DNA of 64,000 nucleotides, from assembly GCF_044647545.1 (NCBI RefSeq), contig NZ_CP172818.1; one strand, given 5' to 3'. This document shows positions 26,330 to 26,735 of this stretch, piece after piece. This DNA comes from Escherichia coli. Lineage in GTDB: Bacteria > Pseudomonadota > Gammaproteobacteria > Enterobacterales > Enterobacteriaceae. Numbering within the stretch: the stretch's first letter is position 1; every line of letters starts with the position of its first letter. The notes below the pieces were generated by a model that saw only the letters and a list, made by a program, of their open reading frames with translations, was not told the DNA's origin and did no database searches. The position numbers and the translations under genes are program-made.

Positions 26330-26735
26330 GTGCCTGTTGCCGGATGTACGATCTGTAGGCCGGATAAGGCACTCGTGCCGCATCCGGCAATCAATGCCTG
26401 ATGCGACGCTGTCGCGTCTTATCAGCCTACAACTATTGCCGACCCTAGCCGGATATGGCGCTCGTGCCGCATCCGGCAATCAATGCCTGATGCGACGCTG
26501 TCGCGTCTTATCAGGCCTACAACTATTGCCGACCTGTAGGCCGGATAAGGCACTTGTGCCGCATCCGGCAACAATGCTGATGCGACGCGTCGCGTCTTAT
26601 CAGGCCTACAACTATTGCCGACCCGTAGCCGATATGCGCTCGTGCCGCATCCCAATCAATGCCGATGCGACGCTGCGCGCTATCAGGCCACAACAGCCGA
26701 CCCGAGGCCGGAAAGGCACGGCCGCATCCGGCAGT
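26330..26735. repeat. Tandem REP/BIME array (~4.4 units of ~90 bp, each a pair of palindromic REP sequences)
   Basis: Repeated GCCGGATAAGGCACTCGTGCCGCATCCGGC and GCCTGATGCGACGCTGTCGCGTCTTATCAGGCCTAC units; the last two units show many small deletions. Confidence 0.75.

Follow-up and report, generated by a model that had tools for sequence, protein, structure and literature searches.

Apparent progressive decay of a BIME-2 array between rhaD and rhaA of Escherichia coli: a probable sequence artefact

BIME-2 elements combine Y and Z2 REPs in inverse orientation, with short linkers, in multiple tandem copies that are well conserved within a locus and variable in number between strains (PMC3333891). 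In works cited by PMC3333891 and PMC12306157, REP hairpins in mRNA are described as stabilizing upstream segments, and BIMEs as able to attenuate transcription; a REP no more than 15 nt away from a stop codon can reduce the translation of the upstream gene (PMC12306157). BIME-2 arrays are also preferred, transcription-independent cleavage sites of gyrase, mainly in their Y REPs (PMC6379681, a paper on gyrase at BIME-2 in general that does not mention the rha locus), and TnpA(REP) can cleave and recombine BIMEs in vitro, a possible route to changes in copy number (PMC3333891). A search of the literature for BIMEs at rhaA/rhaD specifically returned nothing useful.

The array studied here lies within a stretch of 64,000 nucleotides of E. 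coli DNA, called the window in what follows. It is the known BIME-2 of the rhaBADM operon, an element of the textbook kind whose copy-number polymorphism is already documented, but its distal units look as if they were decaying. An initial annotation, made from the window alone, had proposed either consensus errors or genuine decay. Judging from the pattern of the losses, we hold that the decay is an artefact of sequence determination superimposed on this BIME-2, with a probability of about 0.88.

Anatomy of the array

Tandem Repeats Finder places a single tandem array at 26359-26733 and gives it a period of 89 and 4.3 copies, at 84% matches and 11% indels. Read as REPs, the rhaD-rhaA spacer holds alternating Y and Z2 elements that span positions 26355-26733, nine in all: five Y and four Z2, arranged as four 92-bp units followed by a terminal Y (Table 1). 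The clean unit, as read from copies in other genomes, is built of a Y REP of 35 nt, the linker ATCAA, a Z2 REP of 37 nt in inverted orientation and a second linker of 15 nt, AACTATTGCCGACCC; on the + strand, Y carries a GTAG foot and Z2 a CTAC. The apparent period of 89-90 bp is thus due to the deletions, the true clean unit being 92 bp long.

Table 1. Coordinates of the genes, REPs and porin tract in the window. Gene names are taken from the RefSeq annotation of matching genomes; hairpin energies were computed on the mRNA strand, where clean REPs reach -20.0 (Y) and -21.9 (Z2) kcal/mol.
Feature	Position	Strand	Remarks
Porin tract	24252..25115		gene for a carbohydrate porin, 1395 nt long in ECONIH1 and here shrunk to about 590 nt, purine-rich (alignment)
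rhaD (rhamnulose-1-phosphate aldolase)	25477..26301	-	downstream of the array in the rhaBADM transcript (RefSeq annotation)
rhaD-rhaA spacer	26302..26737		436 bp, equal to the 460-bp clean spacer minus 24 single-base deletions (global alignment)
Y REP 1	26355..26389	+	intact, 0 deletions; hairpin -20.0 kcal/mol, the clean value; exact pattern match
Z2 REP 1	26395..26430	-	one G lost; hairpin -17.6 vs -21.9 kcal/mol clean
Y REP 2	26446..26478	+	GTAGG foot minus two G
Z2 REP 2	26484..26520	-	intact; -21.9 kcal/mol; sole exact Z2 pattern match within the window
Y REP 3	26536..26570	+	intact
Z2 REP 3	26575..26609	-	two internal bases lost, plus one T from the preceding ATCAA linker; -12.7 vs -21.9 kcal/mol
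Y REP 4	26625..26654	+	signature of Y2; minus five G, with a broken palindrome; -6.5 vs -20.0 kcal/mol; without RF02564 match
Z2 REP 4	26660..26691	-	five T lost, palindrome broken; -10.9 vs -21.9 kcal/mol
Y REP 5	26704..26733	+	Y3 signature; -13.9 vs -20.0 kcal/mol clean
rhaA (L-rhamnose isomerase)	26738..27997	-	upstream of the array in the transcript (RefSeq annotation)

Composition and layout are both those of a BIME-2. The patterns GTAGGCCGGATAAG..CGCATCCGGCA for Y and GCCTGATGCGACGC...CGCGTCTTATCAGGCCTAC for Z2, which are reportedly the consensus forms of Bachellier et al. and PMC3333891, find exact matches, and each of the nine REPs can be aligned with a clean Y or Z2 unit, Z1 not being involved. 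The REPs alternate in inverted orientation, their linkers measure 5 nt and 15 nt, and there is no long IHF-binding L linker. Sequence is conserved within the locus across units 1-3, and across unit 4 and the terminal Y only after 18 deletions have been restored. The presence of a REP/BIME array between rhaD and rhaA, as first annotated, is thus confirmed by Tandem Repeats Finder, by the RefSeq gene names and by the alignment to Y and Z2.

Folding into imperfect palindromes is kept in the first three Y REPs and the first two Z2 REPs, weakened in Z2 REPs 3 and 4 and in Y REP 5, and lost in Y REP 4. Since the restored sequence folds normally, the failure of the distal REPs is put down to sequence error. 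In Y REP 5, the first 22 nt have lost all five T, and the final 13 nt are perfect. In the spacer leader, positions 26335-26346 hold a 12-nt REP-arm-like remnant, TGTTGCCGGATG, which is the exact complement of positions 26562-26573 in Y REP 3; it is also found in E. coli ECONIH1 and is therefore natural.

The Rfam model RF02564 describes naRNA4, a nucleoid-associated RNA from the REP325 BIME array, whose two-hairpin unit corresponds to a Y+Z2 pair. It matches units 1-3 on the + strand (26358-26606) with 65.5, 68.8 and 61.2 bits, above the gathering threshold of 59.5, and has no match in unit 4 at E<=1. In natural rha arrays, the model finds every unit: four of four in K-12 (69-77 bits), four of four in KE41, and two of two in FDAARGOS_497.

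Deletions in the window and their absence in natural arrays

The window is nearly identical to ECONIH1 and to other ST648-like genomes. Compared with ECONIH1, positions 1-8901 are 100% identical, positions 11507-24251 show no difference, the 1.3 kb to the left of the damage (25144-26423) show 0 differences, and the 32.6 kb to its right (26721-59291) show one SNP and no indel; there are 0 differences in either rhaD or rhaA. The RhaD product, of 274 aa, has exact copies in public assemblies. Further along, the rhamnose transporter gene rhaT (about 31506-32539, - strand) is identical to its ECONIH1 copy, which RefSeq annotates as frameshifted, and may be a pseudogene in this lineage. The last stretch, 59292-64000, is without the rhsC element that ECONIH1 has after rpmE and runs straight into yiiX-metJ-metB-metL; its best genome, GF131, is separated from it by 74 substitutions and one indel, a level suggestive of natural divergence or recombination of the ordinary kind.

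The rhaA-rhaD spacer of ECONIH1 and ST648-like genomes has 276 bp, with three Y and two Z2 in the order Y1-Z-Y2-Z-Y3. The window shares with ECONIH1 the leader, the unit sequences, the signatures of Y1, Y2 and Y3, and both flanks; what sets it apart are two additional 92-bp units, a single C-to-T change in a linker, and the deletions. The clean reference used here is accordingly assembled from the units of ECONIH1 itself, one double unit of 184 bp being duplicated: Y1-Z-Y2-Z-Y3-Z-Y2-Z-Y3, or 460 bp. A global alignment of the window spacer with this rebuilt spacer contains 24 single-base deletions, 0 insertions and 1 substitution, which is the C-to-T linker change.

The deletions are far from evenly spread. 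There are none in the 53-nt leader, one in unit 1, two in unit 2, three in unit 3, 13 in unit 4, and five in the last 39 nt; units 1-3 carry six, and unit 4 with the terminal Y carries 18, all within the last 131 clean positions. The trend with position is significant (Mann-Whitney p=4e-6), and it ends abruptly: the final deletion is at position 26720, after which the spacer runs on without fault for its last 17 nt. The first reading of this sequence took units 1-3 for near-identical pairs of about 90 bp, which holds only in the sense that they are nearly intact, for they have six deletions and a true unit of 92 bp. It also called units 4 and 5 degraded by deletions of 1-3 nt: the 18 deletions and the broken palindromes are there, but the damage is not confined to these units, and its gradient starts in unit 1.

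The bases lost are 15 T, eight G, one C and no A, a departure from composition (chi-square p=2e-6). Of the 25 T in the last 113 clean positions, 13 are missing, against 0 of the 56 A or C. Isolated bases account for 11 deletions, whole two-base runs for six, and the shortening of a run for seven; the first two groups point to base-specific drop-out and not to homopolymer slippage. Errors of the homopolymer type are thus ruled out, 11 of the 24 deletions removing isolated bases. At the rate of the flank, about 0.014 events are expected in 460 bp; 24 are observed, with a Poisson probability of 6e-69. Since the flank differs by one SNP in 32.6 kb, there was no time for 24 independent deletions to arise.

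Seven natural spacers were compared: those of K-12, ECONIH1, KE41, ZLWT, ZF31, AH65 and 98209. The spacing of their REP arms is exactly 92 and their palindromes are intact, the sole exception being a Z2 of ZF31 whose loop is 2 nt shorter and which is still palindromic. The spacers of KE41 and ZLWT, both of 460 bp, have 0 indels and 9 or 13 substitutions relative to the rebuilt array; that of K-12 has substitutions plus one 10-bp indel in the leader only. In a spread sample of genomes, spacer lengths are 82, 174/176, 266/276, 358 and 450/460 bp, that is, whole 92-bp steps, so that the variation in copy number between strains that characterizes BIME-2 is found at rhaA-rhaD. Intact natural arrays and 92-bp steps together imply that the locus evolves by substitution and by gain or loss of whole units, and not by scattered single-base deletions. 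The remark in the initial annotation that real BIME arrays keep their palindromes is thus borne out in these seven arrays, and by RF02564 in every unit of the three arrays searched with it.

As for the comparison with reference genomes that it recommended, the seven arrays are clean, and the degraded units are reproduced in none of 5,426 complete E. coli genomes, where the best identities are 94.7% for the array and 97.5% for 1 kb around it, with none reaching 99%. When the query is the repaired 460-bp spacer, identities in the same genomes rise to 99.7%, with about 100 genomes at 99% or more. Among the matches listed for this query, all twelve close relatives have the 276-bp spacer, and the window is, among those matches, the only member of its lineage with five Y and four Z2 at rhaD-rhaA. 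The 276-bp spacer was also present in 29 of the 29 examined contigs that encode the identical RhaD protein. For the reading frame across the degraded units, 5.8 billion clusters contain no near-identical protein, the best hit being 53% identical, a weak result in that a gene may never have been called there.

Other damaged tracts and the origin of the gradient

A second anomaly lies 1.2 kb away, in a non-repetitive gene. The intact homologue of the collapsed porin gene carries the Pfam domain Porin_8, and the tract is still collinear with the gene: their longest common subsequence is 679/716, compared with about 640 for shuffles. It retains 62% of A, 60% of G, 19% of C and 16% of T. Losses are sparse and mostly of G at first, and later T and C almost vanish; they grow from left to right and stop abruptly, the sequence being perfect from position 25116. 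Polarity, order of base loss (G, then T) and abrupt end are common to the porin and BIME tracts, and one artefact very likely accounts for both. Just beyond the right-hand end of the porin tract, downstream of rhaM, the window has two extra T relative to ECONIH1, at 25142-25143.

The region 8898-11506 also departs from ECONIH1. It has a 152-bp deletion right after the fabY stop codon, six indel events in an alpha/beta hydrolase gene, and clustered substitutions and small indels up to position 11506. No complete E. coli genome matches it at 99% or more, though both its flanks are identical to ECONIH1; by its sequence, it would be a corrupted tract, the third in the window, or else a pseudogene of an unusual kind. 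The two other REPs of the window, at 35570-35604 and 40648-40682, sit in a stretch without indels relative to ECONIH1.

Assuming that the gradient is an artefact, a scenario can be proposed. An uncorrected low-quality stretch would let base calls drop out, G first and then nearly every T, at a rate climbing along the + strand, and the loss would stop 17 nt short of the end of the spacer, where sequence of good quality resumes; the most likely cause would be a single poor read, or a poor consensus, bridging stretches that the assembler could not resolve. The reading relies on a spectrum made up of deletions only, on its base specificity, on the monotonic ramp with its abrupt stop, and on the sister tract in a unique gene. 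Three points count against it: no platform that we can name yields a deletion-only, base-specific and ramping signature; the remainder of the window has very high sequence quality, an unusual situation if the assembly were generally poor; and the five Y and four Z2 are unique in the lineage, so that something strain-specific exists here. A generally noisy long-read assembly is ruled out by the lack of any indel over the 32.6 kb on the right and the 8.9 kb at the left end. The initial suggestion of consensus errors in a repeat is favoured as to errors, but the repeat is not simply their cause: the worst tract is in a unique gene, and the clean REPs elsewhere in the window make an explanation by repetition only partly tenable.

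Genuine mutational decay would mean that the distal units of this strain, no longer under selection, truly lost 24 bases. A local mutational process is conceivable, given that BIME-2 is known both for gyrase cleavage (PMC6379681) and for cleavage and recombination by TnpA(REP) (PMC3333891): error-prone repair after either kind of cleavage, or replication slippage at hairpins, are possible routes, and the copy number of the array is unique within the lineage. Yet we consider such decay highly improbable. The right flank is too close to that of ECONIH1, as the figure of 6e-69 expresses; insertions are absent and substitutions almost so; the losses are nearly all of T and G, isolated bases included, and follow a monotonic ramp that ends abruptly; the seven natural arrays offer nothing alike; and the same signature wrecks the porin gene, which a process specific to REPs cannot explain. 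Clean flanks, deletion-only spectrum and intact natural arrays thus weigh strongly against the decay that had been envisaged for this locus. Were the deletions real, a recently expanded BIME-2 of an ST648-like E. coli would be eroding directionally and base-specifically, and the porin gene with it, through some local process, for instance cleavage of REP hairpins time after time with faulty repair; this, too, we consider highly improbable.

The extent of the artefact can also be debated. If the whole right half of the array were a product of assembly, the true spacer would be the 276-bp one with three Y and two Z2, and the additional Z-Y2-Z-Y3 an unmerged duplicate of low quality. The twelve relatives with 276 bp, listed among the roughly 100 genomes at 99% or more, speak for this, as do the repetition of the Y2 and Y3 signatures in order within the extra block and the concentration of 18 of the 24 deletions in the last 131 clean positions. 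However, the errors start in unit 1, ahead of any putative duplicate, and the worst damage adjoins the perfect right flank and not an internal junction. Moreover, the copy number of the locus varies naturally, from 82 to 460 bp, and if the gain of units is real, one unequal crossover between Y3 and Y1 would be enough to give the observed order. An unmerged duplicate is thus a tentative option, on balance unlikely. More doubtful is a corruption of the record after assembly, deliberate or accidental, with no part for sequencing chemistry. Three separate local tracts (8898-11506, 24252-25115 and 26424-26720) in an otherwise near-perfect 64 kb would fit it, and so would a ramping, base-specific and deletion-only signature that matches no nameable platform; but it is indistinguishable, in sequence, from a poor bridging read, and the upshot is the same: the gradient is not biological.

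The biological weight of an artefact of this kind is small, and its value lies in quality control. The window would hold at least two, and probably three, local corrupted tracts, which would yield false pseudogenes (the porin, the alpha/beta hydrolase) and false calls of decaying repeats. Findings in 8898-11506, 24252-25143 and 26424-26720 should be treated as suspect.

The array among known BIME-2 elements

By analogy with other BIMEs, the G+C-rich hairpins of the rha mRNA, which is read from the minus strand, would shield the upstream rhaBA from 3' exonucleases, and may attenuate read-through into rhaD. By direct reading of the sequence, only 4 nt separate the end of the terminal Y REP from the stop codon of rhaA, and this REP may lower rhaA translation. 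Copy number would change in whole units, through unequal recombination or through the REP-associated transposase TnpA(REP). In the rhaD-rhaA spacer of E. coli OkiPb01682 (303-543), a different repeat, with many CCCTCTCCC / GGGAGAGGG motifs, has taken the place of most of the BIME, of which the terminal Y REP is all that is left.

As a small RNA, naRNA4 acts on the nucleoid together with HU. The rha units resemble it in sequence, and here RF02564 matches on the + strand, which is antisense to the rhaBAD mRNA; the model seems to capture Y+Z2 units in general rather than any single gene.

The closest known counterpart of the array in layout is the rhaA-rhaD array of K-12, in a spacer of 450 bp. 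The two are alike in locus, flanking genes, 92-bp tandem units and linkers, and each has five Y and four Z2, which alternate in inverse orientation. They differ in that the window copy has 24 single-base deletions, which break its distal palindromes, whereas K-12 and the other natural copies have none.
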